A stretch of DNA of 64,000 nucleotides from NCBI GenBank assembly GCA_049521895.1, contig JBEKOJ010000001.1, forward strand, positions 290,717 to 354,716. Direction: 5' to 3'. Of this stretch, positions 671 through 54,223 are shown in pieces. How positions within the stretch are numbered: the first letter of the stretch is position 1; every line of letters starts with the position of its first letter. The translations under genes and the position numbers were made by a program. The DNA is from Candidatus Saccharimonadales bacterium. Lineage in GTDB: Bacteria; Patescibacteriota; Saccharimonadia; Saccharimonadales; UBA10212. Under the pieces are notes generated by a model, which did not search any database, was not told the DNA's origin, and saw only the letters and a program-made list of their open reading frames with translations.

Positions 671-672
671 AG

Positions 673-3477: not shown

Positions 3478-3490
3478 TATAATCCGTTTA

Positions 3491-6822: not shown

Positions 6823-6846
6823 AAATACTTAACAAGTCAAGTATTT
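6823..6846. promoter_or_regulatory. 24-bp palindrome, family site A
   Basis: AAATACTTAAC-AA-GTCAAGTATTT (1 mismatch), 45 bp upstream of the rarA start. Confidence 0.4.
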
Positions 6847-10260: not shown

Positions 10261-10378
10261 GGGCGGATTTCACCCATCACGCGCGAGACTAGGCTTGCCT
10301 AGTAGTGAGCTTTTGATATTATCCCGACAGTGTCGGGATATAAATCCGCCCTTAGGCGGGTGAATCGAAAGTCTACTA
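10261..10378. repeat. Structured intergenic element E1 (terminator plus AAAGTCTACTA motif)
   Basis: GGGCGGATTT (10261-10270) pairs with AAATCCGCCC (10342-10351). Internal perfect hairpins at 10288-10303 and 10320-10340. TCGAAAGTCTACTA at 10365-10378 is shared with E2-E4. Confidence 0.5.
10344..10361 (-). terminator. Putative intrinsic terminator of the ABC operon
   Basis: On the minus strand, CCGCC-taag-GGCGG is followed by ATTTATAT, about 20 nt past the permease stop. Confidence 0.4.
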
Positions 10379-27203: not shown

Positions 27204-27373
27204 TTATTGATTTACTCGCTCGTTAATTTACTTTTACTCTATCTTTCTTGATTATGCTTGTCAATGGCCCACCGATGGCCAGAAACCTCCACGCCTAATT
27301 ATAACAGGGGGGGTTGGTTCTGTCACATGTTGCGACGTCCTTTTACCCATCGTACAAAGCGCATCTAGTGATG

Positions 27374-27392
27374 GGGCATACCGGTCTGGAAC
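27374..27392 (+). repeat. Junction-like motif M1
   Basis: GGGCATACCGGTCTGGAAC, 82 nt upstream of 27474..27767. Consensus G(A/G)GCATAC.GGTCTGGAAC. Confidence 0.45.
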
Positions 27393-27473
27393 TTTTTTAG
27401 AGTTAAATCAAGGCTTATAAAAAAGCTCCGGAGCATTTACAATGATGGATGATAGATAAAATAGGAGATTGTA

Positions 27474-27767
27474 ATGACAAGTGTTCTTATCTTAGGGTTT
27501 ATCGCCGGGCTTTTGGGCGGCAATGGCCTGCCCCACTTCGTTAAAGGTATTACTGGCCAAAAATACCACTCGCCTTTTGGCAAGGAATCATCAGCTGCGG
27601 TAAACGTCATATGGGGCTGGATCAACTTTGTGGTTGCTGTCCTGGTTTGGCACATAGCACCTATGCGCCAGCATCCGCGGGCAGCTTTCCTAGCGGTATC
27701 ATTGGGCGTACTAGCCATCGGCTTGATACTGGCTAACACTCGGTCCAAACATCAGCACAATAAATAA
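27474..27767 (+). CDS. Small membrane protein
   Basis: 97 aa, 3 hydrophobic helices, GGAG upstream. Preferred over the antisense ORF 27437..27748. Confidence 0.6.
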   Translation: MTSVLILGFIAGLLGGNGLPHFVKGITGQKYHSPFGKESSAAVNVIWGWINFVVAVLVWHIAPMRQHPRAAFLAVSLGVLAIGLILANTRSKHQHNK

Positions 27768-27830
27768 AGCTTTTTCTTGACGAAAATCTAATCGGGTATA
27801 TCAACCTGGGTTCTTTTTGTGTTTCGATAC

Positions 27831-29360
27831 CTATTCCCCTTCAACCGAGAACTGCAACTTGGTTGCCGATTGTCGCATGGTCAGAGCCGAGGCGGCGGCC
27901 GCTATCAGCATAATCACACCAGCTAGCCGCAGAGCAATGTCTAGACCGTTGCCAAAAGCCTGATATGTTGCGTCAGTTACTTGTTGCACCAACTGGGGGT
28001 GGCTCAACACTGCTCCAGCCGACACATGACTATTGGCCGGCAAGTTACCACCGTGGGTGATGGCATAAATGACTAATGATTGAAAATCATGAGGCAGCCC
28101 CAACGCCTGGAGTTTTTGTACTAACTGCGATGTCAGCTGGCCGTTGACTATAGTGCCCAGGATAGCTACCCCAAAAACACCGCCAAGTTCCCTGAATGTA
28201 TTGAAAGTTGAGGCTGCCATACCAGAGCGCTCAGCTGGCACAATCGTCAACACCATTGAGGTTGCGGTAACCAGCGTCATGCCAAAACCAAAACCAACAA
28301 TGGCCAGCGGCCAAGCCAGAGTCACAGTACCAACGCTGGGCTTAAGTACAGCATCCACTGCAAATATACCGATACTGGCCACAATACACCCAACTACCAT
28401 AGGCAAAGCCGGCCCGCTTTTAGACACCCATCGCCCTGTAATATACGTGGCCAACATCATAGTGGCGGCCATAGCTATAAAAGCTAGCGCTATGTCATAG
28501 CCCGAGAAACCGACCACGATTGCCAAGTATAGTGCCGTGAAGAAAAAGATGGCGAACACGCCAAAACTAGTGGCTAGAGCCACAAAATTAGCACCAGCAA
28601 AGGCCGGTTTACGAAAAAAGTCTAGTTTGAGTACCGGGTCGCGGCTGCGTGACTCCCATAGTATGAATAAGCCGCCTCCCAGTAGCGACAGGGCGAATAA
28701 CAGATCAATCCACCAAGTACGGTAGCCTGACGATTCACCTTGAATAACCGCAAATGTCACAACCGCTAACGCTGCTGTTCCAATTATTAATCCGCCAATA
28801 TCTAAATGGCGGCCACTAGGATCAGCGCTTTCAGGCAGCATCTTCAGGCCGACAATAAATACCAGAAGGCCAACAACCAGATTAAAGGCAAAAATCCCCC
28901 GCCAGCTGGTAAAACCAGTAATAATACCGCCGATAATCGGGCCGAAAGCCAGTGCGACTCCCGATACCGCTGCCCAGACGCCAAGCGCGCGGGCCCGAGA
29001 CTTTCTCTCCGGATAAATATGGCGGATCATAGATAGTGTCCCGGGCTCCGAGGCTGCGGCGCCTATGCCCATAATGACTCTGCCGATCGTTAATATGCCG
29101 CTTGACGGCGCCAGCATGGCTACGACTGAGCCGGCCGAAAATAAGGCCACGCCACCCAGCATTATTTTTTTGCGGCCGAATATATCACCTAAAGTCCCGC
29201 CTGTGAGCATTAATGCCGCAAAGGCCAGCATATAGCCGTCAACAATCCACTGCAAAGCCTGCACGCCGGCATTAAGATTAGTCTGCACACCGGACAACAC
29301 TACACTTACAATCGTGTTGTCTAAAAATGTTAAGAATAGGATTGTACAGATTATAGCCAA
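27831..29360 (-). CDS. MFS transporter (DHA2/EmrB-QacA-like, 14-TM type)
   Basis: About 14 TM helices with motif GTLGDIFGRKK. AAGGAGG lies about 45 nt upstream of the TTG start, so the true start may be further upstream. Confidence 0.8.
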   Translation of the reverse strand: MAIICTILFLTFLDNTIVSVVLSGVQTNLNAGVQALQWIVDGYMLAFAALMLTGGTLGDIFGRKKIMLGGVALFSAGSVVAMLAPSSGILTIGRVIMGIGAAASEPGTLSMIRHIYPERKSRARALGVWAAVSGVALAFGPIIGGIITGFTSWRGIFAFNLVVGLLVFIVGLKMLPESADPSGRHLDIGGLIIGTAALAVVTFAVIQGESSGYRTWWIDLLFALSLLGGGLFILWESRSRDPVLKLDFFRKPAFAGANFVALATSFGVFAIFFFTALYLAIVVGFSGYDIALAFIAMAATMMLATYITGRWVSKSGPALPMVVGCIVASIGIFAVDAVLKPSVGTVTLAWPLAIVGFGFGMTLVTATSMVLTIVPAERSGMAASTFNTFRELGGVFGVAILGTIVNGQLTSQLVQKLQALGLPHDFQSLVIYAITHGGNLPANSHVSAGAVLSHPQLVQQVTDATYQAFGNGLDIALRLAGVIMLIAAAASALTMRQSATKLQFSVEGE

Positions 29361-29461
29361 AGCCCGGCGGCGTGTCTTTGTTGAGGTGGTTAAAGCTATA
29401 ACGATCCTCCTTCGGGGTTAGATATTACGGCTACCGTGGACGTCGGGGTGCTAAATTGAGT

Positions 29462-29920
29462 CTATTGGCTGCTGCCACCAGGACAGTTCGGCGGTACGCT
29501 GCCAGAAAGCTGCAGTAAGCCACAAAAGGCCGCATCACCCACCTTCCAAGCGCCGTTTACCTTCACGGCTTGGCCTTTTTGGTTGCTTAGTGCCGGCTGT
29601 TTATTAATATCAATGGTATATTGCACGGTCGCACTGCTGCCATTTAGACTGACACTAGAAACAGTTGCAGTTGTAGCCTTGGCTGTCGCTGATTGCGCCT
29701 GAGCCTGGATGACTTGTGCGAACTGCTGGCCGTTTTGCAACAGGTTAATTTTACCTTGGGCTGAAGTTGAGCCGTTAAAAAAGGCGACCCAGTTAGTCTG
29801 AATCTGGCTCTTGGCTGCGTTGTTGTCGGAATTAGTCCTACCGCTAGTGAACCACCAGATGGCAAAACCACCACCCACTATCACTATCAATATCACTAAA
29901 CCAATCCAATATTTTTTCAT
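29462..29920 (-). CDS. Membrane-anchored hypothetical protein
   Basis: N-terminal TM (YWIGLVILIVIVGGGFAIWWF) with a Gln/Ala/Ser-rich ectodomain. GGAGG upstream. Confidence 0.6.
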   Translation of the reverse strand: MKKYWIGLVILIVIVGGGFAIWWFTSGRTNSDNNAAKSQIQTNWVAFFNGSTSAQGKINLLQNGQQFAQVIQAQAQSATAKATTATVSSVSLNGSSATVQYTIDINKQPALSNQKGQAVKVNGAWKVGDAAFCGLLQLSGSVPPNCPGGSSQ

Positions 29921-30003
29921 AACTTCCTCCCCGTTAAGTTTACTATGAGGGCATTATACGCCAGTTTGAAAATCGTCCACATAAATCCCTAATTTAATAG
30001 TGC

Positions 30004-30717
30004 ATGATAATATCGTTTACGTCAGTGATAAATAGTGGATATAGTACTAAAGGTATGTTGACACTGAAATATACTCGGGCGATTTTATGGCTTTGTGTAG
30101 CATCGGCTATACTTTATAACTCCTGGCCCTTGGGCTATGTGCTAAATAATAAAGTTGCACACCATGGTTTAATAAGCGACTTGGGAGCAATTAATCAGCC
30201 GTTTAATTGGCTATTTATCATGACCGACATCTTAACAGGTATTTTCATCTTGGCCGTAGTAATGTTCATGCGGTCGAAAACATTCTCTGGACTGCGTTCC
30301 AATGCCTGGTCTATGGTATCTATAGGACTTCTGCTGTTCGGGCTCTTTACTGCGATTAGTGCCCTATTGCCGCTTAATTGTTATGCTTCTGTAGTGGGTT
30401 GTGGAGCCCATCTTAACCAAGCGTTTGGCCTGCATGATGTTACTGGCGGTATCGCGGCCTTTGGAATATTTATCAGTTTGATGGGTGCCAGTACTCTGGC
30501 CGCACTAAATAAACTTAGTGGGGTATTGAAGCGAATGACATGGACAGCGCTTATCGCTTGGAGTGCAAGCGGTATCTTGTTCGTCATTTTAACCGAAGTG
30601 AACAAGGGGGTTCAGCTTATGCAGCAAATATTCCTTATTCTTTCCGGGTTCGCTGTTATTATTATCGGTTTTATCGTCCACGAAACTGTGCGGCTGGCTC
30701 AACTCAACGATGAATGA
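30004..30717 (+). CDS. Polytopic membrane protein, unknown function
   Basis: 237 aa with about 6-7 TM helices. Confidence 0.6.
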   Translation: MIISFTSVINSGYSTKGMLTLKYTRAILWLCVASAILYNSWPLGYVLNNKVAHHGLISDLGAINQPFNWLFIMTDILTGIFILAVVMFMRSKTFSGLRSNAWSMVSIGLLLFGLFTAISALLPLNCYASVVGCGAHLNQAFGLHDVTGGIAAFGIFISLMGASTLAALNKLSGVLKRMTWTALIAWSASGILFVILTEVNKGVQLMQQIFLILSGFAVIIIGFIVHETVRLAQLNDE

Positions 30718-30736
30718 CCGATAAAAAATACTGGCC

Positions 30737-30755
30737 GGGCGTCTGGGTCTGGTAC
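30737..30755 (+). repeat. Junction-like motif M0 (degenerate)
   Basis: GGGCGTCTGGGTCTGGTAC, matching the consensus at 13 of 18 specified positions. Confidence 0.3.
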
Positions 30756-30759
30756 ATAC

Positions 30760-31059
30760 TTACGAATATATAACTATGCCAACCACAACGCTGGCCTCGA
30801 TGAGCAAATAAAGGACTGAGGTAACGAGCAATGGAATTAGGCGTTTTTTGATCGAATAAATGATCCAGACAAAATTGTCTATTACGAAAAAGCCCCATGT
30901 ATATATGGACACATCTCCCGCACTATGATGAGCATAAATGGTGATGGCTTGTGGTATTTCAAATAGGGGTGTAGCTACAGTGAAAAGGTAGACCAAATAA
31001 TCAAAAGGCGTTTCGGGTCTTTGTATTCCCCAAAAAAGTTTGGCATGTTTTTTACCCAC
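30760..31059 (-). CDS. PQ-loop/SemiSWEET-like small membrane protein
   Basis: 99 aa, 3 TM, PQ motif region EIPQAITIYAHHSAGDVSI. Confidence 0.5.
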   Translation of the reverse strand: MGKKHAKLFWGIQRPETPFDYLVYLFTVATPLFEIPQAITIYAHHSAGDVSIYTWGFFVIDNFVWIIYSIKKRLIPLLVTSVLYLLIEASVVVGIVIYS

Positions 31060-31093
31060 TGCTCCAGTATACCAATCCGGATGTCCTCGGCCG

Positions 31094-31112
31094 GAGCATA
31101 CTGGTCTGACAC
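31094..31112 (+). repeat. Junction-like motif M2
   Basis: GAGCATACTGGTCTGACAC. Confidence 0.45.
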
Positions 31113-31242
31113 CTTATGCTAGAGTTTTTAGCACTGTTTCAGTAATTTGCTATCTCTCAGCGAAATGTAAGCAATATCCTCTATAATGATTATGGTAGAT
31201 GGACGTATTGGCATTACTTATATAAATTAACAAGGAGAAATT

Positions 31243-31572
31243 ATGTTTGATCATAAAGAAATGAGTGAAGAAAAAAAGGCAAAGTTGACTTCAAAACTCA
31301 AAGAGTTGGGTATTGATGAGAAAATGATTGATGAACATCTGATGTGGAAAGTTAAAAAAGCTTCTCATAAGTTAACCAAGTTGCGCTTGATGCTTGACGA
31401 AAAAGGGGCCTCAAAAGAAGACACAAAGAAAATTCTTGATAAATTGGTTGAGGGTTCAATGAAGAAAGATTTAGCCAAAATTAAAGAATGGCAAAAAGAG
31501 CATAAAGAAAAAGAACATTGTGATTGCCCTTGCCACCGTGAGTGCTACTGCGATTGCCATAAAAAGGACTAA
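31243..31572 (+). CDS. Lys/Glu-rich small protein with C-terminal Cys/His cluster
   Basis: 109 aa, GGAGA SD. The tail HCDCPCHRECYCDCHKK suggests metal binding. Confidence 0.6.
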   Translation: MFDHKEMSEEKKAKLTSKLKELGIDEKMIDEHLMWKVKKASHKLTKLRLMLDEKGASKEDTKKILDKLVEGSMKKDLAKIKEWQKEHKEKEHCDCPCHRECYCDCHKKD

Positions 31573-31597
31573 AGCGCTTTAAATAAGCATAAGAATT

Positions 31598-31627
31598 TTG
31601 GCTGAGTATATTGGTCTGGAGCGTTTT
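31598..31627 (+). repeat. Junction-like motif M3 (30-nt version)
   Basis: TTGGCTGAGTATATTGGTCTGGAGCGTTTT, 24/30 identical to M4. Confidence 0.55.
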
Positions 31628-31904
31628 ATCTTTTCTTCCGATGCCGAAAATATAAAACAGCATAAATAAAATAAACTGTGAATGTTAGCGCTATTAGACC
31701 CTGCCCAATAATTAGTGGCGCATCATTTAAACTAACGAACTTGATAAGTATTACGACTATGGCAACGTAACGAATTATCATACCAAGGAGGGAAAGGTCC
31801 TTTGATGATTTAGTTCGATGGATCCGTCTGATTTGAAGAACTACATCAACATTAAGAGCTATGTACGATAGAAGTGTCAGCCAGTCCAGTATTTTCATAG
31901 CCAA
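31626..31904 (-). CDS. PQ-loop-like small membrane protein
   Basis: 92 aa, 3 TM, with VLQIRRIHRTKSSKDLSL resembling a PQ-loop motif. Confidence 0.45.
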   Translation of the reverse strand: MAMKILDWLTLLSYIALNVDVVLQIRRIHRTKSSKDLSLLGMIIRYVAIVVILIKFVSLNDAPLIIGQGLIALTFTVYFIYAVLYFRHRKKR

Positions 31905-31927
31905 AGCATAGCATGAACATAACCAAT

Positions 31928-31957
31928 TTGGCTGAGCATACAGGTCAGGAACCTTTT
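31928..31957 (+). repeat. Junction-like motif M4 (30-nt version)
   Basis: TTGGCTGAGCATACAGGTCAGGAACCTTTT. Confidence 0.55.
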
Positions 31958-31996
31958 CGGTTTTTATGCAGATACTTGTCGGTCTATAATACGGTT

Positions 31997-32176
31997 ATGA
32001 TTAAAAAATACCCGTATTGGATTTATGTTGTTGGTGTTTTTGTAGCCTGGGCAATAGTACTGTTGTTAACGTGGAGGTTAATCAGCGCTAGCAGGTTCCA
32101 TAATGTGCTTATTTTCTGTAGCGGTTTCTTGCTTGGTGTTTTGGCTGCGAGTCTTGCGCGAAAGGTTTTTAAGTAA
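31997..32176 (+). CDS. Small 2-TM membrane protein
   Basis: The ORF track gives 31913..32176. The in-frame ATG at 31997 (MIKKYPYWIYVVG...) avoids overlap with motif M4. Confidence 0.45.
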   Translation: MIKKYPYWIYVVGVFVAWAIVLLLTWRLISASRFHNVLIFCSGFLLGVLAASLARKVFK

Positions 32177-32205
32177 GACGCTTATGCTGGGCTAAGCGTG
32201 TCGGC

Positions 32206-32745
32206 CTAGATTGGCCGCCCTTGTTGCTGCGCGACCCAACCATCTGCGAGTTTCTTAATATTTAGGGTTTCCTTGTGAAGAGGGGCTAGGCCTAGATCTT
32301 TATTAACGAAAGTGTAGGTGTCTGAGGTGGGATCATAATGGCTTATGTAAACAATCCCATTGAAAGCCGCTTTTGGGCCTATATTGTATGTGCCAATGTT
32401 GTCATTGTGGTGCTTATTAACCCATTTTTGAATCTCTGTATCATAATGCTCTAAGTAATTACGAAACTTTCGATTATGAATGACCGAGGACTTTGGAATT
32501 CCAAGAACTTTCCCCATAGTTATTACTTTTGTATAGTTAGAGTACTCTACCCTGTATTCTCCTTTTAGCATTTTTGAGACCATTGCGCAGTGAGACAGAA
32601 ACGAGTGTATGGAAGTAAAAGCTGTGTCAAATTGACTCGCAGATTTTTTATTAATATTCCTGTGTGCGATGTCTGCGAAGTGAGCCTGAGTGCTGATTTC
32701 ACGGATGGATGCTTCCAGCCATGAGTTAACGATATCTATATTCAT
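32206..32745 (-). CDS. Hypothetical protein with HEPN-like R-x4-H motif
   Basis: The ORF track gives 32206..32808, but the ATG at 32745 (MNIDIVNSW...) with GAAGG upstream is more plausible. FRNYLEH fits the HEPN RNxxxH pattern. Weak call. Confidence 0.35.
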   Translation of the reverse strand: MNIDIVNSWLEASIREISTQAHFADIAHRNINKKSASQFDTAFTSIHSFLSHCAMVSKMLKGEYRVEYSNYTKVITMGKVLGIPKSSVIHNRKFRNYLEHYDTEIQKWVNKHHNDNIGTYNIGPKAAFNGIVYISHYDPTSDTYTFVNKDLGLAPLHKETLNIKKLADGWVAQQQGRPI

Positions 32746-32746
32746 A

Positions 32747-32787
32747 ATGGTTACCTTCGGTGCACTACTTGGCTGGGGAGGAGGGAT
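32747..32787. repeat. Direct repeat DR1 (displaced copy of tRNA-Gln 3' end plus flank)
   Basis: 37/41 identical to 34042-34082. Includes tggctggggaGgagggat, which is the tRNA 3' end through the T-loop. Confidence 0.75.
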
Positions 32788-34041
32788 GGTTGCTGTCGCA
32801 ACACGCACTCATCATGCTCGATGCAAGCATCTGTGCGTGACTCCTTGGCGCCCGAACCTTCCATAATATATTACCATCCGATTTTCGGACTCGCCCTATA
32901 CTAGATTACAATTCACCCCCGTCGAAGAAGATTTAAACCAAGAAAAATGCCCCGCGTATCGTCGATACTTTGCGGGACACGCCGGATTGAGTACCGGAGC
33001 TCTTTCAAGCTAGTTGTCGTACCTGTCGAGTTCTTCCTTGACCGCCTCCCTTACTTGTTGTTCCAGCATCAGGCGCTCGCGGATCAGTTGGGTCTCGGAG
33101 CCAATTTCGCGAGCTCGTGCGTTGGCGAGCTCACGGGCGATCTGCTCGTTACTTTCAGCTGCTTCGATGGATGCCTCCACCGAGAGGCTTGACGCCAGCC
33201 GCAAGAGTCCCTTGACTCGCTCGATCTCCTCGTTGACCTCGGGCGTACGGTGGAGCTGCATAAGCTCCAGCAGACGGCCGTTGAGAATCGAGACCTCGTA
33301 AGAGACCTCGGACTTGCGTTCACCCACTCGTAGCTTGGCGAGCTTCTTTTCCGTCCGCTTGCGGCCGGCTTTGCCAACCTTTTTCACGAAGGGCTTGCCC
33401 CCTGCGTTGCGGACGTAGTAGAGAGCCTTGTAGCTCGAGAACTCGCCCCAGCAGTCCGAGACGGTGGTTGCCCCCTCGCCTTCCGCCAGAAACCGGCCGC
33501 TTTCCAGCATCCTTGGCGTAACAAGAGCGCCGCTCTCGATGGCGTGGGAGTAGCGCACCCTGTAGATCTCGATAGTGCCGTCTATCAGGAGAACCATCCC
33601 TGGAGGCACGTGTGCCTTAAGCCCGAGAACTTCCTGCGAGGCGGATGTCAGCAGAGAGGTGTCTACGGGCTCGCTACCAGATGCCTGGCAGGCGCCGCCG
33701 TCGCAGTTGGTGTTTCCGTCGTTGTAGATCCAGACTGAGTTGATGCCTTGGGGGCCACCGAAATGCCTGCGACCATTGCATAGAACGGCATGGGTGATGT
33801 CACCATCCCGTCCGCGCTCAATGTTGAACATGCGGATCTCTTGACCGCTCATCTTACTCCAATCACTAAAGGTACGAAAACTACTCATATTATAGCATAA
33901 GAATAATATTCGGTCAATTTAATCAAGTAGTGTCCAAGCCCGGCCGCCCTGTTGGCATGATTGGGGCAATATTAAAGCAAACCCGAAAATGAACTTGCTT
34001 TAATCCAAAATTGCAGTATTTTGCAGATACAAATTGGCACT
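32788..34041. mobile_element. Small GC-rich islet integrated at tRNA-Gln 3' end (no integrase; remnant or satellite)
   Basis: Bounded by DR1 and DR2. Similarity stops inside the T-loop, the classic tRNA-targeting crossover position. Carries one GC-rich ORF. Confidence 0.5.
33010..33888 (-). CDS. Hypothetical protein, GC-rich, C-terminal coiled coil
   Basis: 292-aa ORF with two shadow ORFs. Composition is visibly more GC-rich than its neighbours. No family recognised. Confidence 0.6.
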   Translation of the reverse strand: MSSFRTFSDWSKMSGQEIRMFNIERGRDGDITHAVLCNGRRHFGGPQGINSVWIYNDGNTNCDGGACQASGSEPVDTSLLTSASQEVLGLKAHVPPGMVLLIDGTIEIYRVRYSHAIESGALVTPRMLESGRFLAEGEGATTVSDCWGEFSSYKALYYVRNAGGKPFVKKVGKAGRKRTEKKLAKLRVGERKSEVSYEVSILNGRLLELMQLHRTPEVNEEIERVKGLLRLASSLSVEASIEAAESNEQIARELANARAREIGSETQLIRERLMLEQQVREAVKEELDRYDN

Positions 34042-34082
34042 ATGGTCACCTTTGGTGCACTGCTTGGCTGGGGAAGAGGGAT
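34042..34082. repeat. Direct repeat DR2 (tRNA-Gln 3' end plus 23-nt flank)
   Basis: Partner of DR1. Confidence 0.75.
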
Positions 34083-34138
34083 TCGAACCCCCGATCCTGG
34101 GACCAGAACCCAGTGCCTTACCACTTGGCCATTCCCCA
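34065..34138 (-). tRNA. tRNA-Gln (anticodon CTG)
   Basis: 74-nt manual cloverleaf: acceptor TGGGGAA/TTCCCCA, D arm GCCAAGTGGTAAGGC, anticodon arm CTGGG-TTCTGGT-CCCAG, T arm GGGGG-TTCGAAT-CCCTC. CCA is encoded. Confidence 0.9.
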
Positions 34139-34279
34139 CTGATAGATAAATTATAGAACTTTAGGGTTCGAATCCCGAGGGCTTTCAACTCACGAATATT
34201 TTTCTGCTGAAAAATTTCGCGAGCCCTCCTCGCCGCCGTCGCGGCTGCGGCCTTGCGAGTTGCCGCCAGGCAACTCTCA

Positions 34280-34331
34280 CCCCGATCTGGGACTCTGAAC
34301 CTCAGTGCGCATGCCGCTTGGCCAACTCCCA
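34280..34331 (-). pseudogene. Truncated tRNA-Gln-like 5' fragment
   Basis: TGGGAGTTGGCCAAGCGGCATGCGCACTGAGGTTCAGAGTCCCAGATCGGGG parallels tRNA-Gln up to the 5' T-stem and then diverges. The anticodon arm is irregular, and no matching T-loop or acceptor 3' half was found. Confidence 0.4.
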
Positions 34332-34411
34332 TTAACCTACACTATTTTACTCTAAAGAGGGGTGATAGTCTTTGCCACTTGGCCACTTTCCAATATGGAA
34401 TATTTAAGTAT

Positions 34412-35683
34412 TTAGCCCATTTTAAAAGGATTGGCGAGCCGCAATGTTTCATCAGCAGATTCTATGCGCATGATTTCATTGTGTTTAGCAGTTCTTTCAC
34501 CCCTTGATAAGCTCCCGGTTTTTATCTGGTCTGCACCGGTGCCAATAGCAAGGTGTGCGATCGTGACATCTTCTGTTTCGCCACTCCTGTGTGAAATAAT
34601 TGTCCGCCAGCCACGACTTTTTGCTAGTCGTAAGGTATGGATTGTTTCAGTGAGCGTCCCAATTTGATTTGGTTTGATAAGAATTGCGTTACCTGCTCGC
34701 CGGTCAATGGCTTGCTGCAATCTGTCCGGGTTTGTCACGAGCAAATCATCGCCGACAAGCTGTAGTTCTCCAAGTCGTTTCGTCAAGTCTTCCCAGGCGC
34801 CCCACTCGTCTTGATCCAGCCCATCTTCAATAGACAACATCGGGTAGCTTTGTGAAATAGTCGTTAAATAATCAATCATTTCCGTGTTATTCAGTCGTCG
34901 ACCTTCTGTTTTCAGGTAGTAGGTGCCGTCTTTATATAATTCCGACGCTGCGGCATCTAATCCGTAACCTACATCAGCGCCTGGCTTGTATCCCGCTGCT
35001 TCAGTTGCCCTGCCTAGTAAATCAAGCATTTCCGTATTGGATTTGACCGGAAAGGTGAAACCGCCTTCGTCACCAACCGCAGTGGATACGCCAACTGATG
35101 CGATTTCGCTCTTCAACGCCTGAAATATCTCAGCACCAACTTGGATTGCCTGGGCATAGCTTTCTGCCTGCCTCGGAATGACCATAAATTCTTGAAAATC
35201 TGAAGAATTAGTAGCGTGCTTACCCCCGTTGAGAAAATTCATCATCGGTAGCGGTAGTGATTTTGGTGGACTGCCAGCAATATCGTTGACATGAAGATAC
35301 AGGGGTATTTGCCGAGTATTCGCGGCCGCATGTGCGCAGGCTAAAGACACCGCCAGGATAGCGTTGGCTCCCAGCCTCGACTTGTTTTGGGTCCCATCGA
35401 GGTCAATCATTTTCTGGTCAATCAGAATCTGATTGTCTGCCGGTACGTTGTGCAAGCAATCAGCAATTTCGCCTTCAATATTAGCGATTGCCCGCAGTAC
35501 ACCTTTGCCGCCAAATGCACTACCGCCGTCTCTTAGTTCATACGCTTCATGCGATCCCGTTGAAGATCCGGAGGGTACAGCTGCCCGACCGAAAATGCCA
35601 CTTTCGAGCCAGACATCAGCCTCGACTGTTGGTACACCTCGTGAATCAAGGATCTGTCTAGCCTTTATGCTCGTGATTTTCAT
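34412..35683 (-). CDS. eno: Enolase
   Basis: Full-length enolase homology (ILDSRGVPTVEA..., SHRSGETED). Confidence 0.95.
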   Translation of the reverse strand: MKITSIKARQILDSRGVPTVEADVWLESGIFGRAAVPSGSSTGSHEAYELRDGGSAFGGKGVLRAIANIEGEIADCLHNVPADNQILIDQKMIDLDGTQNKSRLGANAILAVSLACAHAAANTRQIPLYLHVNDIAGSPPKSLPLPMMNFLNGGKHATNSSDFQEFMVIPRQAESYAQAIQVGAEIFQALKSEIASVGVSTAVGDEGGFTFPVKSNTEMLDLLGRATEAAGYKPGADVGYGLDAAASELYKDGTYYLKTEGRRLNNTEMIDYLTTISQSYPMLSIEDGLDQDEWGAWEDLTKRLGELQLVGDDLLVTNPDRLQQAIDRRAGNAILIKPNQIGTLTETIHTLRLAKSRGWRTIISHRSGETEDVTIAHLAIGTGADQIKTGSLSRGERTAKHNEIMRIESADETLRLANPFKMG

Positions 35684-35725
35684 GGGCTTATTTTCTCATA
35701 GTCCTTATGTATAATAAATATCAAG

Positions 35726-37384
35726 ATGGCACTGGTTTATTTTTATGACGTAACGGAACTGGACAAAAAACAGTTAAGCGCTGCGCTTGATGGGACTGAC
35801 CACCATTATGAATATGTGACAGACAAAATTGTGCCGGCCAATTGTAACCCTGAAACCGAAGCGATATCTGTGTTTGTAAGCAGTAATGTTAGTCGTGAAG
35901 TGATTGAGGCGATGCCAAAACTCAGGCTCATTGCTTGTCGATCAACCGGCTTTAACAACATCGATCTCGCGGCCGCGCAAGAACACGACGTCGCCGTTGT
36001 CAACGTCCCTACGTACGGCGAAGCAACGGTTGCAGAATATGTCTTCACATTGTTGCTGGCCTTGCAGCGCAAATTGCCTGCTGTGCTCGAAACTGAAAAA
36101 GAACAATTCTCGCTTGATGACCTAATGGGTCGTGACCTGCAAGGCAAAGTCTTCGGTGTGATAGGAACAGGCCACATTGGACAGAAAGCTTTGAAAATTG
36201 CTGATGGTTTTTCGATGAAAACTATTGCTTATGATAGTTATCCAAAAGCTGAACTCCAAAATGAATACCATTTCCAGTACGTTGGATTAGATGAATTACT
36301 GGAGCAATCCGACGTAGTGTCACTCCACGTCCCCTACCTCCCTTCGACTCACCACCTGATGAACCGCGACCGGCTTAACAAAATGAAGCGTGGCGCCATT
36401 TTGGTCAATACGGCTCGTGGCGAGCTTGTCGATACAAACGCGCTTATCGAATTACTTGATAAGGGTCAGCTGGGGGGAGCCGCCATAGACGTCATTGAAG
36501 GCGAAGCGCTACTGAGTTATCACGAAGAAATGGCTCTCCTGCGGAGTGACACACTCCCCGAAGAGGTGTTGCGCCACAGTGTCGAAATAACCGTGCTGGA
36601 ACAAATGCCAAATGTTATAATCAGCCCCCATAATGCCTTTAATACGGTCGAGGCAATTGCTCGTATAAATCAAACTACCGCCAAGAATATCATCGATTTT
36701 TGGTCTGGGAATATACCTAACAAAGTTGTGCCGGCGAAACGAGCCTTTGGAAAATTATTGATAGTTCGTCATACCGAATCGGAGTGGAATGCGACCGGAC
36801 GATGGACCGGTATCACCGATGTTCACTTAAGCGAAAAAGGCTTCAAAGAGTCAGCCATGTTGGGACTAGCCCTCAAAAAATCGGATATCCATATCGATCT
36901 TGCTTACTGTTCTGAGCAGATTCGGACACGTGAAACGCTAGAAGCTATGTTGGATACGTCACAGCAATTTGAAGTGGACATCGTCGCCAGTAACGCGCTT
37001 GATGAACGAGACTATGGAGAATATACCGGCCGGAATAAATGGGAGGTAAAAGAACTCATTGGCGAAGAGGCGTTCAATCAGATCCGTCGCGGCTGGGATG
37101 TACCAGTACCTGGCGGCGAAACCCTCAAAATGGTATATGAGCGTGTTGTTCCTTTTTATACTGGAACCGTCCTGCCGCGCTTGCGGGACGGCAAAAACAT
37201 CTTGATTGTGGCTAGCGGCAATAGCCTCAGAGCACTTATGAAATATCTAGAATCTATCAGCGACAAAGACGTCAGCCAACTGGAAATGCTCTTCGATCAA
37301 ATTATTGTGTACGACATCTCAGCCGATGGCTTACGCGCAGGTTCATCGGTTGTCCAAGTTGATAGCACGCCGCCTCACGCCTAG
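35726..37384 (+). CDS. Fusion protein: D-isomer-specific 2-hydroxyacid dehydrogenase (N) + 2,3-BPG-dependent phosphoglycerate mutase / histidine phosphatase (C)
   Basis: The N-terminal part has GVIGTGHIGQKA, NTARGELVD and SPHNAF. From about nt 36750 the sequence LLIVRHTESEWNATGRWTG matches the RHGE(S/T)xWN dPGM signature. Confidence 0.8.
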   Translation: MALVYFYDVTELDKKQLSAALDGTDHHYEYVTDKIVPANCNPETEAISVFVSSNVSREVIEAMPKLRLIACRSTGFNNIDLAAAQEHDVAVVNVPTYGEATVAEYVFTLLLALQRKLPAVLETEKEQFSLDDLMGRDLQGKVFGVIGTGHIGQKALKIADGFSMKTIAYDSYPKAELQNEYHFQYVGLDELLEQSDVVSLHVPYLPSTHHLMNRDRLNKMKRGAILVNTARGELVDTNALIELLDKGQLGGAAIDVIEGEALLSYHEEMALLRSDTLPEEVLRHSVEITVLEQMPNVIISPHNAFNTVEAIARINQTTAKNIIDFWSGNIPNKVVPAKRAFGKLLIVRHTESEWNATGRWTGITDVHLSEKGFKESAMLGLALKKSDIHIDLAYCSEQIRTRETLEAMLDTSQQFEVDIVASNALDERDYGEYTGRNKWEVKELIGEEAFNQIRRGWDVPVPGGETLKMVYERVVPFYTGTVLPRLRDGKNILIVASGNSLRALMKYLESISDKDVSQLEMLFDQIIVYDISADGLRAGSSVVQVDSTPPHA

Positions 37385-37474
37385 CTGAACTTATAACCTA
37401 ATTGCCCGAGAATAAGACTCGTTATGGCCAGATCCGCAAACTGATTTGTCACTGTTTTGGCGAAGCCTTTATGA

Positions 37475-38095
37475 TTATTTTGAAACGTAGCCAAGCAGGC
37501 CTTTTAAAATTTCGTTCGTTACTTTGCTGCGCGATAGTGCCCCGTCAACCTCTATGAGCAAGCCTCTATCACGGTAAAATTCGATGACTGGTATGGTATT
37601 GGTTTGGAACTTTTTCAGCCTGGTTTTCAACACCACGCGGCGGTCATCTGAACGCTTACCACGGTCATGTTGAGCCTCAGCGGTCTCGGCTTCAAAACGC
37701 CGGCAGACCTCTTCCTCGGAAAGATTTAGTAAAATTACAGCTTTAAGAGGGTGTCCAGAGTCGGTCGTGGCTTTCATTATGACGGGTTCTTCACCGTGTG
37801 AGCGTCCCACCGCACTTAGCATCAATGGCTTTCCTTTAAGCTCTGGCTGCGACAAATAAGGAAGTACCATACCTAAGTAAAAATCAGATGGGACAATGCC
37901 ACCGTTAGCCATTACCTGCTTAATCTTTTCCGGATCATGGTGGCTGCGTAAAATGTCGCCGCCAGCAATGAGTACCCCGCCAAATAAATCTGCCAGTATG
38001 CGGCCCTGTGTGTTTTTGCCTGAAAACGGGCAGCCAAAAATGTTGACGGAGCCCGTACCAAGCCAATTAGCGATTATTTTTATTTCATCATTCAT
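37475..38095 (-). CDS. Adenylate kinase-family protein (divergent P-loop)
   Basis: GCPFSGKNTQ in place of GxPGxGKGTQ. GGDILRS and lid/core similarity to Adk. Confidence 0.55.
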   Translation of the reverse strand: MNDEIKIIANWLGTGSVNIFGCPFSGKNTQGRILADLFGGVLIAGGDILRSHHDPEKIKQVMANGGIVPSDFYLGMVLPYLSQPELKGKPLMLSAVGRSHGEEPVIMKATTDSGHPLKAVILLNLSEEEVCRRFEAETAEAQHDRGKRSDDRRVVLKTRLKKFQTNTIPVIEFYRDRGLLIEVDGALSRSKVTNEILKGLLGYVSK

Positions 38096-38249
38096 AAAGC
38101 CAATTATAACAGCTTAATTATGGAGGACGGGGTGTTAGCCAAGTTTTCATTTAATTTATAACTTACCAGCTAGGCTGAATGAAAAGTGCTAATGGTAAGA
38201 TAAATTGATATAATATCACCTGAAAAAGGTAACCGGATAAAAACAAAAC

Positions 38250-40610
38250 ATGTATAAATACCTTAGGCTCTTTAAAGAAATATCTATTACTGATGTGCCG
38301 CAGGTTGGCGGTAAAAACGCCTCGCTCGGCGAGATGTACCGATACCTGGCGCCCAAAGGTGTTAACCTACCAAACGGCTTTGCCACTACTGCTCAAAGTT
38401 ATTATTATTTTCTTGACCAAGCCGGTATTCGTAAGGATATCGAAAAGATTTTAGAGGGTCTAGATATCAGCAATGTAAAGGATCTAGAAAAAAGAGGCGC
38501 CAAAATCAGATCATTGATTGTGAGAGCCAAACTACCAAGAGATTTTGAACAGGAAATTAGACGGGGTTATCAAGAACTAAGCCAAACTTGTGGTAGCAGC
38601 AAATTAGTGGTGGCGGTGCGGTCATCGGCAACTGCCGAAGATTTGCCGAATGCCTCCTTTGCCGGCCAGCAAGAAACTTATCTAAATATTAAGGGTGAAA
38701 AAAATATTCTGCGCGCAACCAAGAAATGTATTGCGTCACTTTTCACCGATCGAGCCATTGTCTATCGCGTCGAGAATCACTTTGAGCATATGAAAGTAGC
38801 GCTGTCGGTTGGTATCCAACAAATGGTGGCCGTACACGCTAAAGCAGCAGGCATAATGTTCACCATTGATACCGAGTCCGGATTTAGGAACGCGGTGATC
38901 ATCAGTTCCATCTACGGATTGGGCGAGAACATCGTGCAGGGTCGGGTGAACCCCGATGAGTTCATTGTCTTCAAACCTACATTGGCAATCCTAGAAAAGA
39001 AGGTCGGAACCAAAAAAGAGAGAATGGTCTCTGTCCGCGGCAGTAAGACCAAAAATATTACCGTTACTAAAAAGGATCAGGTAAGATTTTCTATCACGGA
39101 TGAGCAGGTCAAGACCCTGGCTCGATGGGGCATGGAGATTGAGAAGCATTATGGCAAACCGATGGATATCGAATGGGCGCTTGATGAAGATGACGGCAGG
39201 TTATACATCGTACAGGCCCGGTCCGAGACCGTTCAGTCCCGGAAGGACACGAACATCATTGAGGAATACCGGATGCTTGAAAGCGGAACTATTATTGCTA
39301 GAGGGGCGAGTGTGGGTAATAAGATCGGTGTCGGCCGAGCCAACAAGATCATGAGTATCAAAAATATAAACTTGTTCAAGGCTGGCGACGTACTGGTGAC
39401 GGATATGACAGACCCGGACTGGGAGCCGATCATGAAGATAGCCAGTGCTATCGTGACCAACAAAGGCGGCCGCACCTGCCATGCCGCCATAGTCTCCCGT
39501 GAGCTTGGTATCCCTTGCGTAGTCGGTACTGGGAATGCCTCCCAAAATATCACGGACAACAGTCCTATAACCGTCAGCTGCGTCAAGGAGGACGAAGGTA
39601 TCGTTTATGAAGGGGAGCTTAAGTTCGAAATCAACCGGACCAGTGTAAAAAACCTGAAACGGCCAAAAACCAAAATCATGATGAATGTCGGCTCTCCGGA
39701 CTATGCGTTCGAGTATTCGATGATTCCGAACGACGGGGTAGGACTGGCCCGGGAGGAATTTATCATCAACTCCAGTATCAAGATCCATCCGCTGGCCTTG
39801 TTGCGATTTGATGAGGTCAAAGACAAAAAGGCTCGCGTGCAGATTTCCGACCTCACGGCCGGATATGACGACAAAGCCCAGTACTTTATCGACAAGCTGG
39901 CGGAAGGCATTGGCATTATCGGCGCTGCCTTCTATCCGAAAGATGTCATTATCCGATTTAGCGATTTCAAGACTAACGAGTATGCCGACCTTATTGGCGG
40001 CGTGCAGTTTGAACCCAAAGAAGATAACCCGATGATTGGCTGGCGGGGTGCCAGCCGCTATTACTCCGACGGATACCGGGATGCGTTTGTGCTAGAATGC
40101 AAAGCGTTCAAAAAAGCCCGGGATGGCATGGGGCTGACGAATATTAAAGGTATGGTGCCGTTCTGCCGCGATCTGACCGAAGCCAAAAAAGTCCTCGATA
40201 TCATGGAAAAGAATGGATTGAAACGGGGTGAAAATGGTTTTGAAGCCTACGTTATGATTGAAATCCCCTCAAATGTCATTTTGGCGGAGCAGTTTGCCGA
40301 GCTCTTTGACGGATTTTCTATCGGTTCAAATGATTTGACGCAGCTTACACTTGGAGTCGATAGGGATAATCGTACCGTTGCCCATATTTACGATGAAAAT
40401 AACGCGGCGGTCGAGGAGCTTATCCGGCGGGTGATTAAAGTTGCCAAAGCCAAGCATGTAAAGATTGGCCTCTGCGGCCAAGCGCCGTCAGATTATCCTC
40501 AATTTGCGCGTTTTTTGGTTGAAGCCGGCATCGACAGCATGTCACTAGCGCCGGACACGGTCGTAAAAACCACGATCGATATCAATAAAACCGAAGAAAA
40601 ACTCGGCTAG
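38250..40610 (+). CDS. ppsA: Phosphoenolpyruvate synthase (pyruvate, water dikinase)
   Basis: 786 aa. GGRTCHAAIVSRELGIPCVVG phosphohistidine region and a PEP-utilising C-terminal domain. Confidence 0.9.
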   Translation: MYKYLRLFKEISITDVPQVGGKNASLGEMYRYLAPKGVNLPNGFATTAQSYYYFLDQAGIRKDIEKILEGLDISNVKDLEKRGAKIRSLIVRAKLPRDFEQEIRRGYQELSQTCGSSKLVVAVRSSATAEDLPNASFAGQQETYLNIKGEKNILRATKKCIASLFTDRAIVYRVENHFEHMKVALSVGIQQMVAVHAKAAGIMFTIDTESGFRNAVIISSIYGLGENIVQGRVNPDEFIVFKPTLAILEKKVGTKKERMVSVRGSKTKNITVTKKDQVRFSITDEQVKTLARWGMEIEKHYGKPMDIEWALDEDDGRLYIVQARSETVQSRKDTNIIEEYRMLESGTIIARGASVGNKIGVGRANKIMSIKNINLFKAGDVLVTDMTDPDWEPIMKIASAIVTNKGGRTCHAAIVSRELGIPCVVGTGNASQNITDNSPITVSCVKEDEGIVYEGELKFEINRTSVKNLKRPKTKIMMNVGSPDYAFEYSMIPNDGVGLAREEFIINSSIKIHPLALLRFDEVKDKKARVQISDLTAGYDDKAQYFIDKLAEGIGIIGAAFYPKDVIIRFSDFKTNEYADLIGGVQFEPKEDNPMIGWRGASRYYSDGYRDAFVLECKAFKKARDGMGLTNIKGMVPFCRDLTEAKKVLDIMEKNGLKRGENGFEAYVMIEIPSNVILAEQFAELFDGFSIGSNDLTQLTLGVDRDNRTVAHIYDENNAAVEELIRRVIKVAKAKHVKIGLCGQAPSDYPQFARFLVEAGIDSMSLAPDTVVKTTIDINKTEEKLG

Positions 40611-40618
40611 TAAGACCC

Positions 40619-41410
40619 CTAGGACAGTAGAACTCCGCCGTCTACGACTATTTGTTCTCCTGTCATATAACTGGACATATCGCTAGCGAGGAAGAGGGCT
40701 ACCATACCGATTTCGTCGGGCTCACCCATGCGGTGCATCGGGATTTTGGCCATAAAAGCTTGGGTTTGTGCCGCCATCTGGTCAGCTGAAGCACCTTGGC
40801 TCATAGCAGCTGCACCAGGGGTAGCAATACCGCCTGGGGCAATAGCATTAACCCAGATTTTGTGTTCGGCCAGCTCCAGCGCCGAGTTCTTAGTAAAACC
40901 CCAGACACCGTGTTTAGAGGCGTCGTAGTGAGCCAAGCCAATCATGGAGGGGTGAAGCGCATCAACTGAGCTGATATTAATAATCTTTCCGCCACCCTTT
41001 TGCTTCATTATCTCGGCCGCATATTTCGTGGTCAAGAATACACTTCGCAGATTCACCTGTATGACTTTATCGAACTGGTCCGCTGTCATTTGGGCTACCG
41101 GGATAGACGGATAAATACCGGCGTTGTTCACTAAAATGTCTACTGAGCCAAACTTTTCTTTACATATGTTAATCATTTGCTTGACGTCTTCTTCGCTGGA
41201 AACGTCAACTTTAAGGGCTTCGGTAAACCAGCCTTTGTCTGTCAATTCTTGAGAGGCTTTTTGGGCAGCTGCGTCATCCATATCAGCAATCATCACCCTA
41301 GCTCCTGCCTCGGCTAAGCGGTAGCTTATCCCATAACCGATGCCCCTAGCACCACCGGTTACGATCGCAATTTTATCTTTTAGATTTAATAGATCTTGTA
41401 TACTTTTCAT
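40619..41410 (-). CDS. SDR family oxidoreductase (FabG/glucose-1-dehydrogenase-like)
   Basis: TGGARGIGYG, NNAG, YDASKHG. Confidence 0.85.
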   Translation of the reverse strand: MKSIQDLLNLKDKIAIVTGGARGIGYGISYRLAEAGARVMIADMDDAAAQKASQELTDKGWFTEALKVDVSSEEDVKQMINICKEKFGSVDILVNNAGIYPSIPVAQMTADQFDKVIQVNLRSVFLTTKYAAEIMKQKGGGKIINISSVDALHPSMIGLAHYDASKHGVWGFTKNSALELAEHKIWVNAIAPGGIATPGAAAMSQGASADQMAAQTQAFMAKIPMHRMGEPDEIGMVALFLASDMSSYMTGEQIVVDGGVLLS

Positions 41411-41524
41411 ATTTTCTCCCGAATTTATTCTACTTCAAATTGACCTAGTGGACTAGAACCGTATTTTAATACCGTGAAGGAGCAGCGGAGTTTCTGACGC
41501 TGCGCTGCGCCGAAAGCATTAGCG

Positions 41525-42241: not shown

Positions 42242-42265
42242 AAATACTTAACAAGTTAAGTATTT
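42242..42265. promoter_or_regulatory. 24-bp palindrome, family site B
   Basis: Perfect AAATACTTAAC-AA-GTTAAGTATTT between convergent genes, overlapping the sodA stop codon. Confidence 0.45.
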
Positions 42266-44521: not shown

Positions 44522-44608
44522 CCCTGTAGTAGACTTTCCAGTCTATCTACCCTAGGGTGGATAAAAAGCCCGCCTTAGGCGGGCTCATCTGGAAAGCCCA
44601 CTACGGGG
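44522..44608. repeat. TIR hairpin element E2
   Basis: Arms CCCTGTAGTAGACTTTCCAG and CTGGAAAGCCCACTACGGGG (3 mismatches) enclose the rpsP terminator hairpin. Confidence 0.55.
44562..44585 (-). terminator. Intrinsic terminator of rpsP
   Basis: On the minus strand, AGCCCGCC-taa-GGCGGGCT (8-bp GC stem) is followed by TTTTTAT. Confidence 0.65.
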
Positions 44609-47399: not shown

Positions 47400-47558
47400 G
47401 CCCGGTAGTAGACTTTCGAGTCAACTCGTCACAGCATGAAATATTTATTCGACAACGTGAGCATAACTTGGCCGACAATCTTTCAACTACTGATAGACAG
47501 TCTGACGAGCTGAGGCTCTCGGGGTATGTCGAATAATCTCGAAAGTCTACTACCGGGC
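47400..47558. repeat. TIR hairpin element E3 (159 bp)
   Basis: Perfect 21-bp terminal inverted repeat GCCCGGTAGTAGACTTTCGAG / CTCGAAAGTCTACTACCGGGC. Homologous to E4. Confidence 0.7.
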
Positions 47559-54179: not shown

Positions 54180-54203
54180 AAATACTTAACTTGTTAAGTA
54201 TTT
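54180..54203. promoter_or_regulatory. 24-bp palindrome, family site C
   Basis: Perfect AAATACTTAAC-TT-GTTAAGTATTT at the left edge of the GC-rich pyrF segment. Confidence 0.45.
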
Positions 54204-54223
54204 CTGTAGTTGGGCATGAAGAA

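Follow-up and report, generated by a model that had tools for sequence, protein, structure and literature searches.

The stretch of DNA analysed here, called the window in the following, comprises 64,000 nucleotides (nt) of a Candidatus Saccharimonadales bacterium (contig JBEKOJ010000001.1, positions 290,717 to 354,716). Between 27.4 and 34.1 kb it carries a series of small gene units that are separated by copies of a short motif and end beside a tRNA-Gln gene. This part of the window is most likely an accessory island formed by serial insertion at the tRNA-Gln, with small membrane proteins and Cys/His proteins as the cargo. Our explanation, which we consider probable, is that the motif represents the element-side core of an attachment-site junction belonging to small cassettes that insert at tRNA 3' ends, and that the copies in the window are now scars of such insertions.

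Results and discussion

Motif copies in the window

Five copies of the motif GGC(T/C)G(A/G)GCATAC.GGTCTGGAAC were found in the window, all on the plus strand, starting at positions 27370, 30733 (a weak copy), 31090, 31600, and 31930. With the 19-mer GRGCATACNGGTCTGGAAC and up to three mismatches allowed, the only matches in the window were located at 27374 (no mismatch), 31094 (two), 31604 (three), and 31934 (one), again all on the plus strand. These four matches compare with a chance expectation of 0.04, and four matches were reached in none of 100 shuffles. The copy at 30733-30755 has five mismatches to the 23-nt consensus; altogether three of the five copies show three to five mismatches. 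In addition, a motif profile was built from the copies of other genomes and then run on the 64-kb window. The E-values were 5e-9 for the copy at 31930, 2e-6 for 27370, 0.003 for 31090, 0.2 for 31600, and 0.24 for 30733, and all five copies, on a single strand, were within the top six profile matches of the 64 kb. Three copies are solid alone, and the copies at 30733 and 31600 are credible mainly through their position and strand.

The positions and the common orientation of the copies had been described in a first-pass annotation of the sequence, including the degenerate state of the copy at 30737, and were borne out. The same holds for the distances of 357, 510, and 330 bp from copy to copy, for the single small gene in each interval, and for the 24 identical positions out of 30 between 31598-31627 and 31928-31957; in a repeat search this last pair extended to 52 nt at 73% identity. 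As had been described, the genes alternate in strand: the open reading frames (ORFs) 30760-31059 (minus), 31243-31572 (plus), 31626-31904 (minus), and 31997-32176 (plus) exist. The two minus-strand genes encode PQ-loop-like proteins, and each of them is flanked by two motif copies, one about 30 nt upstream of the start and one at the stop.

The tRNA-Gln end of the island

The tRNA-Gln(CTG) gene at 34065-34138 (minus strand) was identified with ARAGORN and Rfam and is the presumed integration target; a neighbouring tRNA-Gln and an accessory region had already been proposed for this place, correctly as far as we can see. All units lie on the 3' side of this tRNA, and its orientation is the same as that of the tRNA-like reading of every motif copy. 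Directly downstream of the tRNA gene the X2 flank is found (34042-34064, minus strand). The last 18 nt of the tRNA-Gln together with these 23 nt downstream are present a second time as a direct repeat at 32747..32787 (minus strand, 90% identity), which forms the distal boundary of a tRNA-proximal islet (32788..34041). The islet contains an ORF of 292 amino acids (aa) without a Pfam family (33010-33888, minus strand). A repeat such as the one of 41 nt at 32747-32787 is what insertion at a tRNA 3' end classically leaves behind.

Between the enolase gene and the tRNA-Gln, at 34160-34395, additional tRNA-Gln-like pieces were noticed, namely 5' acceptor/D-arm fragments at 34312-34334 and 34373-34395 and an anticodon/T-like stretch at 34280-34301. 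This suggests older disrupted tRNA copies, and the 110-aa ORF annotated there in some assemblies is probably spurious.

The motif in other Patescibacteria

The motif was searched for in one genome per species, and metagenomes were scanned separately with the 23-mer. The species scan yielded 98 matches, compared with about 70 that we estimate to arise by chance, and at least 18 of the 98 are labelled Saccharibacteria, Saccharimonadales, Microgenomates, Roizmanbacteria, Gottesmanbacteria, or "Patescibacteria group". Several unlabelled metagenome-assembled genomes have the same extended signature: the extension of the motif to ttGGC(T/G)GAGCATAC.GGTCTGGAACC was found only in these and in matches labelled Patescibacteria. 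The metagenome scan added 17 further loci. Among the IMG/VR viral contigs three motif matches were obtained, none with the extended signature, which is a chance-like result. A literature search, which was not exhaustive, returned no description of such a site.

The reverse complement of the motif, GGTTCCAGACC.GTATGCTC(A/C)GCCA, reads like a T-loop-like segment, an acceptor-like strand, a discriminator G, and CCA. In 11 of the 12 loci in which a tRNA is found near a motif copy (loci are designated by L numbers), the motif is situated downstream of the tRNA on the opposite strand, L031 being the exception. The tRNA is tRNA-Gln in the window and in L023, L038, L115, L121, and L124, tRNA-Ser in L036, L035, L086, and L087, and tRNA-Met in L059. 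The junctions are hybrid in that the base preceding GAGC agrees with the type of tRNA. Every Gln-linked copy has T at this position and thereby ends in ...CTCAGCCA, like the ...CCCAGCCA of tRNA-Gln; the four Ser-linked copies all have G and end in ...CTCCGCC, like tRNA-Ser.

Repeated flanks were found as well. In L036 the 130 nt past the motif are identical to the 130 nt past the tRNA-Ser, and L086 has the same pattern. An arm of ~45 nt, GTATAGATTCGAAC..AAGTCAA, follows either the tRNA-Gln (L038, L123, L131/L053) or a motif copy (L023, L119) in Saccharibacteria, and in L123 a repeat of ~85 nt consisting of the tRNA-Gln 3' end, the arm, and the motif is present twice, 2.4 kb apart. The tRNA-Gln of the window has an arm of the type AGCAGTGCACCAAAGGTGACC; the same arm is located after tRNA-Gln(TTG) in L023 and after a motif copy in L124.

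Arrays of three to four motif copies each, with a spacing of 0.3-2 kb, are present in L023, L024, L053, L118, L119, and L127, and in L111 a single gene lies between two motif copies. The cargo at motif loci includes NUDIX, HIT, GNAT, MFS, SDR, and Ldh_2 genes and toxin-antitoxin pairs. The motif is found throughout the family as a site linked to tRNA 3' ends, and in many Patescibacteria it bounds gene cassettes.

With ARAGORN no tRNA was detected at any motif copy, and Rfam, at gathering and at permissive thresholds, found nothing in the window but the three tRNAs. With tRNA-Gln the motif copies share merely the terminal CAGCCA and the T-loop-like GGTTC. To judge from this comparison, they look like element-borne pseudo-tRNA ends and not like displaced pieces of a tRNA. 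We also considered that the motif might be a decayed local tRNA-Gln, with which it agrees at 16 of 26 positions. This possibility was dropped for two reasons: the copies of different genomes have a consensus of their own, and the acceptor-like part is nearer to the ...TATGCCCAGCC ends in L113 and to tRNA-Ala.

In 14 aligned well-kept copies (L021, L023, L024, L058, L072, L073, L099, L116, L118, L122, L123, L126, L129, and L130) a nearly invariant box, AAATGAGACAAATGAGACAC (AAATGAGACAAATGrGACAC), is situated 15-95 nt inside the motif. These loci belong to Saccharibacteria, Microgenomates, and Roizmanbacteria. Where present, the box is single per locus, and in the loci checked it adjoins a motif copy; an inverted GTCTCAT is often found 8-12 nt beyond it. 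The box looks like a protein-binding site. In L021 the box is located at the edge of a region encoding a terminase large subunit.

Variation of the island and relocation of cassettes in relatives

The enolase gene next to the island matches, at 100% identity, a protein listed by NCBI for a Candidatus Saccharimonadales metagenome-assembled genome. Eight contigs, which come from at least six peat-type samples, contain the 6.9-kb block 27300-34200 of the window with 99.97-100% identity. As the block is invariant in these eight contigs, there is no sign that the window's own units ever moved. In species whose enolase is 80-83% identical to that of the window, the DNA after the enolase is entirely different. 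A comparison among strains had been proposed in the first-pass annotation for detecting units that come and go; the eight contigs of the same species speak against such mobility, and the different DNA at 80-83% enolase identity speaks for it.

The loci L110, L111, and L113 contain the same MazEF and RelB/YafQ modules with 90-97% nucleotide identity. These modules are placed either directly after the enolase or beside adh_short, 7 kb off, and every homology breakpoint among the three loci falls into a tRNA-Gln-3'-like sequence, e.g., ...GGGTTCGAATCCCTTCGCCCCAGC.... L019 and L115 have the flank and the motif in common, and the cargo between them differs. As read from these alignments, the comparisons show relocation or replacement of cassettes at tRNA-3'-like sites for relatives, not for the units of the window.

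Two further observations were made on these regions. The adh_short-PPDK-ADK-2-Hacid_dh-enolase block of the window (34400-41450) is inverted relative to L113, with the neighbouring ABC transporter genes keeping their orientation, and the ends of the inverted block coincide with the two cassette hot spots of L110 and L111. Furthermore, contigs tend to stop within ~100 nt of tRNA-like junctions, as at the ends of L113 and L114, and most contigs with homologues of PQ gene 2 are shorter than 5 kb. This suggests that assemblies break at variable, repeat-bounded spots such as the tRNA-like junctions.

A candidate recombinase

A bulk Pfam search with 108 large ORFs of motif-bearing loci, the result of which covers the 25 commonest of 165 families, contained two large serine recombinases. 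With a homologue detected at a further locus, three of about 40 motif-bearing loci (L118, L096, and L089) have such a gene, in each case inside an array. In L118 the gene is part of a 3.5-kb unit extending from a tRNA-3'-like sequence (3354-3377) to a motif with box (6905-6927), with single-gene units on either side, and in L096 it is located inside a motif-bounded element. Four recombinase homologues were inspected: two (L133 and L134) are located 0.65-1.7 kb from tRNA-Gln(TTG) and one 2.4 kb from tRNA-Met. In L118, L089, L133, and L134 the gene, of the type characterized by the domains Resolvase, Recombinase, and Zn_ribbon_recom, lies 0.03-1.2 kb from a tRNA or tRNA-like end.

A conserved tGACCgnGTTCCnTGACCg site was identified in each of the loci L133-L136 and in L118; in most cases it adjoins the tRNA-like end or the gene of the recombinase. 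This site and the motif share a GTTCC(N)GACC core. In Patescibacteria the recombinase family is well conserved and has very many members: each of the 8000 candidates that were scored reached E<=1e-20, and for the top 120 the identity is 59% or more. Often these genes are neighbours of tRNA-Gln(TTG). The candidate for the enzyme, as yet unproven, is a large serine recombinase whose gene would be located elsewhere or have been lost.

When ORFs from about 37 loci were clustered for a recurrent neighbour of the motif, the clusters consisted of small cargo families only (NUDIX, HIT, MFS, SDR); an integrase was not among them. A protein of 386-400 aa beside the motif in L072 and L031 was considered as a possible new integrase; it has no Pfam match and no obvious recombinase motifs and was treated as cargo. 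No pair of empty and occupied sites was recovered for a recombinase-bearing element.

Model of cassette insertion

According to our model, the minus strand of the motif would constitute a pseudo-tRNA 3' end with the T-loop-like GGTTCCAGACC, the acceptor-like.GTATGCTC, and AGCCA. A circular cassette would carry the box, the motif, the crossover, and the X arm as an attP-like site, and its partner in recombination would be the tRNA-Gln 3' end or a pseudo-tRNA end left earlier. After insertion the tRNA would be restored and followed by the X arm and the cargo of the cassette, and the motif would be left at the far end, joined to the former downstream sequence of the tRNA. Each new insertion would move the older cassettes outward, the newest one adjoining the tRNA. 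In the window the order, starting from the tRNA-Gln(CTG) and its arm, would then be the islet 32788-34041, closed by the true tRNA repeat, followed by the units 31953-32746, 31623-31929, 31113-31599, and 30756-31089, each closed distally (left) by a motif copy. A larger unit reaching the copy at 27370 would be the outermost one.

In this model the circular form of the cassette, the precise position of the crossover, and the enzyme are putative; the motif family, the fixed geometry relative to the tRNA, the hybrid junctions, and the relocation in relatives are what the sequence comparisons show. A crossover inside GTTCC|GACC was considered, but the comparison of L053 with L119 would rather place the switch at the ...CAGCCA end or close to it. 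The first-pass annotation had left the choice between a cassette-type array and serial insertions at a preferred site. Both fit a boundary site that occurs in many Patescibacteria, is tied to tRNA 3' ends, and goes along with relocation in relatives.

Several observations count against the attachment-site explanation. None of the window genes checked was found to encode a recombinase; the check comprised the precomputed Pfam results of the source contig for ~1-41.5 kb, a Pfam search with ten larger ORFs for 41.5-64 kb, and a tBLASTn search with a serine recombinase. The link to the recombinase consists of co-location in five loci, and given that the Pfam view covers 25 of 165 families, a tyrosine integrase may be the enzyme as well. 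The box, with up to two mismatches allowed, is absent from the 64-kb window. The eight contigs from at least six samples display no presence/absence variation of the block, and neither an excised circle nor an empty-site allele was observed. Units of 330-510 bp are far below the usual size of integrative elements. By the profile, two of the five copies are individually nonsignificant (E=0.2 and 0.24). Finally, the T-loop-like part of the motif (TTCCAGA) is unlike that of any tRNA seen in the analysis, so that the label pseudo-tRNA rests on resemblance together with the junction data.

Alternative explanations

Since the copies in the window are degenerate and lack the box, no recombinase was found, and the samples do not vary, we take the sites to be inactive scars; the cargo genes, as far as can be read, are still intact. 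Alternatively, the window could contain a live integron-like platform, with the tRNA end as primary site and motifs usable by a recombinase encoded elsewhere. The single-gene units with a site of their own, the shuffling of cassettes with intact sites among hot spots in related genomes, the very common recombinase family in Patescibacteria, and the almost consensus copy at 31930 would all agree with that. Nevertheless, we regard a live platform as unlikely in view of eight contigs without variation, a window without a box, three of five copies with three to five mismatches to the 23-nt consensus, and 64 kb in which no recombinase was found.

A role of the motif as a transcription or regulatory signal of small accessory genes (promoter element, operator, or terminator) is more doubtful still. 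The motif is always intergenic, and after the better-preserved copies outside the window a direct/inverted repeat box and TATAAT-like hexamers are found, the adjoining gene pointing away from the motif. However, in the window, where all copies are on one strand, some genes have the motif upstream and others have it at their stop, and neither a common hairpin nor a T-run terminator is present. A regulatory signal would also leave unexplained the orientation relative to the tRNA, the terminal base specific for the type of tRNA, and the duplicated tRNA flanks. Promoter and terminator scans of the window revealed nothing consistently placed at the motif. That a simple promoter or terminator role is improbable had been argued before from the placement of the motif, and the fixed tRNA geometry without hairpin or T-run agrees with this view.

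We give very little weight to the possibility that a PQ-loop gene with its flanks was duplicated locally in tandem, once or twice, and that the motif copies are what is left of this, without any link to mobile DNA. Two units do encode PQ-loop-like proteins, and the copies at 31600 and 31930 share 52 nt at 73%. These two proteins, however, have an identity of 26% across just 34 residues, which argues against a recent tandem duplication of the units, and the intervening unit is unrelated. The explanation is largely refuted by the occurrence of the same motif with different cargo in many genera and in other Patescibacteria lineages. The doubt raised at the outset, that the copies might be leftovers of one local duplication, is settled by the same two facts.

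Least probable in our estimation is that the motif is part of a functional small structured RNA, i.e., a tRNA-like RNA or a pseudogene. Its reverse complement resembles a T-arm with acceptor strand and GCCA, and in three Microgenomates-type copies one stem position is, by eye, altered on both sides. Over about 20 copies, though, the partner position of the variable base is inconsistent, a 5' acceptor strand is absent, and no copy is matched by Rfam or ARAGORN. The first-pass annotation had suggested looking for a conserved RNA structure; single-strand folding of six copies gave z-scores from -2.6 to +1.25 with structures that differ, and no shared fold emerged.

Units and cargo of the island

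The outermost motif copy (GATGGGGCATACCGGTCTGGAAC, 27370..27392, plus strand) is situated between an ice-binding-like gene and a 97-aa ORF. The following stretch, 27393..30732, was described by its ORFs and by Pfam and contains this 97-aa ORF (27474-27767, plus), an MFS transporter gene (27831-29300, minus), an Mtb12_C-like gene (29462-29920, minus), and a DUF998 gene (30004-30717, plus). Solely from the two bounding motif copies we infer that it is one inserted unit. The degenerate copy GGCCGGGCGTCTGGGTCTGGTAC (30733..30755, plus), supported mainly by position and strand, is located at the stop of the first PQ-loop-like gene. This cassette gene 1, recognized as an ORF and by Pfam, encodes a 99-aa membrane protein with a borderline PQ-loop (30760..31059, minus). 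It is followed by the copy GCCGGAGCATACTGGTCTGACAC (31090..31112, plus) and by cassette gene 2 (31243..31572, plus) for a 109-aa Lys/Glu-rich protein with a Cys/His tail and no Pfam family.

The next copy has an arm-like flank (31583..31634, plus; core 31600-31622, GGCTGAGTATATTGGTCTGGAGC) and forms the repeat pair with the copy at 31930. On the minus strand this flank has the sequence AGCCAAAATTCTTATGC and resembles the start of the L110 MazEF cassette (AGCCAAATTCTTATAC). Cassette gene 3 (31626..31904, minus; likely start ATG at 31898) encodes a PQ-loop-like membrane protein of 90-92 aa. Beyond it the best-kept copy of the array is situated (31913..31964, plus), with the core 31930-31952, GGCTGAGCATACAGGTCAGGAAC, and the reverse complement GGTTCCTGACCTGTATGCTCAGCCA. 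The innermost motif-bounded unit (31997..32745) consists of a 59-aa membrane ORF (31997-32176, plus) and a 179-aa ORF (32206-32745, minus).

The naming of the two PQ-loop-like genes stands in part: the Pfam matches are borderline (E=1.6e-4 with 21.8 bits at a cut-off of 22, and E=0.007), and the label "PQ loop repeat" given to homologues by the Joint Genome Institute agrees with the assignment. PQ gene 2 (31626..31904) has 66 homologues in Patescibacteria with 60-76% identity. The contexts of PQ-loop homologues are mixed; the homologue in L139 is located beside tRNA-Leu with a tRNA fragment, and L137 has no tRNA or motif nearby. For the 59-aa gene a homologue with 80% nucleotide identity was found in the recombinase locus L133, the homology being limited to the ORF.

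Other repeats of the window

At the start of the window, at 648-3484, five copies of the 24-bp repeat CTAACCGGCCGCCCCTTTTGAGCG are present with one gene per interval, and the array adjoins a gene for a 315-aa reverse transcriptase (Pfam RVT_1, 4198-5145). The suspicion that this array and the motif array belong to a shared system was not upheld: the 24-bp repeat is unrelated in sequence and, among 140 loci, occurs only in this genome. A palindrome, AAATACTTAACAAGTTAAGTATTT, has four intergenic copies (6823-6846, 42242-42265, 54180-54205, and 58009-58031) and looks like an operator or terminator. The repeat family CCCGGTAGTAGACTTTCGAGTC occurs in both orientations at 10361-10387, 44522-44551, 47400-47431, 47527-47558, and 59353-59382 and includes a 32-nt inverted pair, 95 nt apart.

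Implications

Patescibacteria, also known as the candidate phyla radiation, have tiny genomes and are usually called poor in mobile DNA, yet their gene content varies sharply among close relatives. As a tentative extension, to which we assign a rather low probability, Patescibacteria might possess an integron-like platform in which the tRNA 3' end serves as primary site, the motif together with the AAATGAGACAAATGAGACAC box and the arm forms the cassette site, and a large serine recombinase acts in trans, the window being quiescent. If this were true, the platform would insert, excise, and reshuffle single-gene cassettes (toxin-antitoxin, NUDIX, HIT, small membrane proteins) between a few hot spots. 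A conserved boundary site that can be found by sequence alone would give a handle on the flexible gene pool of Patescibacteria and would help to account for the assembly breaks at such spots. It would also point to a recombinase and attachment sites as possible genetic tools for organisms that have very few.

Comparison with known systems

The nearest described behaviour is that of the tycheposon islands of Prochlorococcus. Tycheposons integrate at tRNA genes, successive elements are pushed outward and separated by partial tRNA copies, and degenerate remnants and extra partial tRNAs are scattered over the islands; the elements use mostly tyrosine and in a minority large serine recombinases, and their host is streamlined with few classic mobile elements (Hackl et al., bioRxiv, doi: 10.1101/2020.12.28.424599). 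Serial integration at a tRNA with displacement of older elements would be common to both systems. In contrast to tycheposons, the repeated site described here is not a copy of the local tRNA but a distinct pseudo-tRNA motif with a box of its own, found across Patescibacteria. The units are as small as one gene of 60-110 aa, the window is without a replication or integration module, and the candidate enzyme is a serine and not a tyrosine recombinase.

In staphylococci, staphylococcal cassette chromosome (SCC) and pseudo-SCC elements are inserted by large serine recombinases (CcrAB) at the 3' end of a conserved gene, rlmH (orfX). Tandem SCC arrays have a short direct repeat of the target 3' end at each junction, and many of their units are without a recombinase. 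Here a tRNA end and not a protein gene is the target, the size of the units is far below that of SCC elements, and the link to the recombinase is only by co-location. Accretion of integrative and conjugative elements in streptococci likewise leads to tandem units beside the 3' end of a tRNA or other gene; these cis-mobilizable elements (CIMEs) are recombinase-less and att-flanked and result from site-specific accretion and deletion. CIMEs, however, derive from conjugative elements of tens of kb, whereas the cargo described here consists of small genes that occur singly, and in none of the loci were genes for conjugation seen.

Integron arrays and CALINs, i.e., clusters of attC sites without an integron integrase, likewise have cassettes that mostly hold a single gene and carry one recombination site, always at the same end; among them, too, there are arrays with no integrase nearby. 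The attC sites are imperfect inverted repeats of 57-141 nt (R''-L''...L'-R'); they contain a GTTRRRY core and fold in single-stranded form. The motif, in contrast, lacks the structure of an imperfect palindrome and has no fold and no GTTRRRY core, and no inverted repeat is present at its copies. Moreover, the genes alternate in strand, and the primary site is a tRNA end. Integrons have an IntI tyrosine recombinase with attI and Pc beside the array; an IntI-type integrase was not seen, nor any recombinase gene among those checked in the window. Repetitive extragenic palindromic sequences, bacterial interspersed mosaic elements, and miniature inverted-repeat transposable elements are palindromic or have terminal inverted repeats and are dispersed over the genome in many copies, with no fixed relation to a single locus. 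They differ from the nonpalindromic motif, of which the scan of the 64-kb window gave five copies on one strand, four of them within 1.2 kb. Clustered regularly interspaced short palindromic repeats (CRISPR), with regular repeats of 25-40 nt and noncoding spacers of 25-50 nt, differ as well, the spacings here being 330-3720 bp and containing genes. We rate the array as a form of tRNA-targeted tandem accretion that is set apart by its site, its small units, and its serine recombinase candidate.

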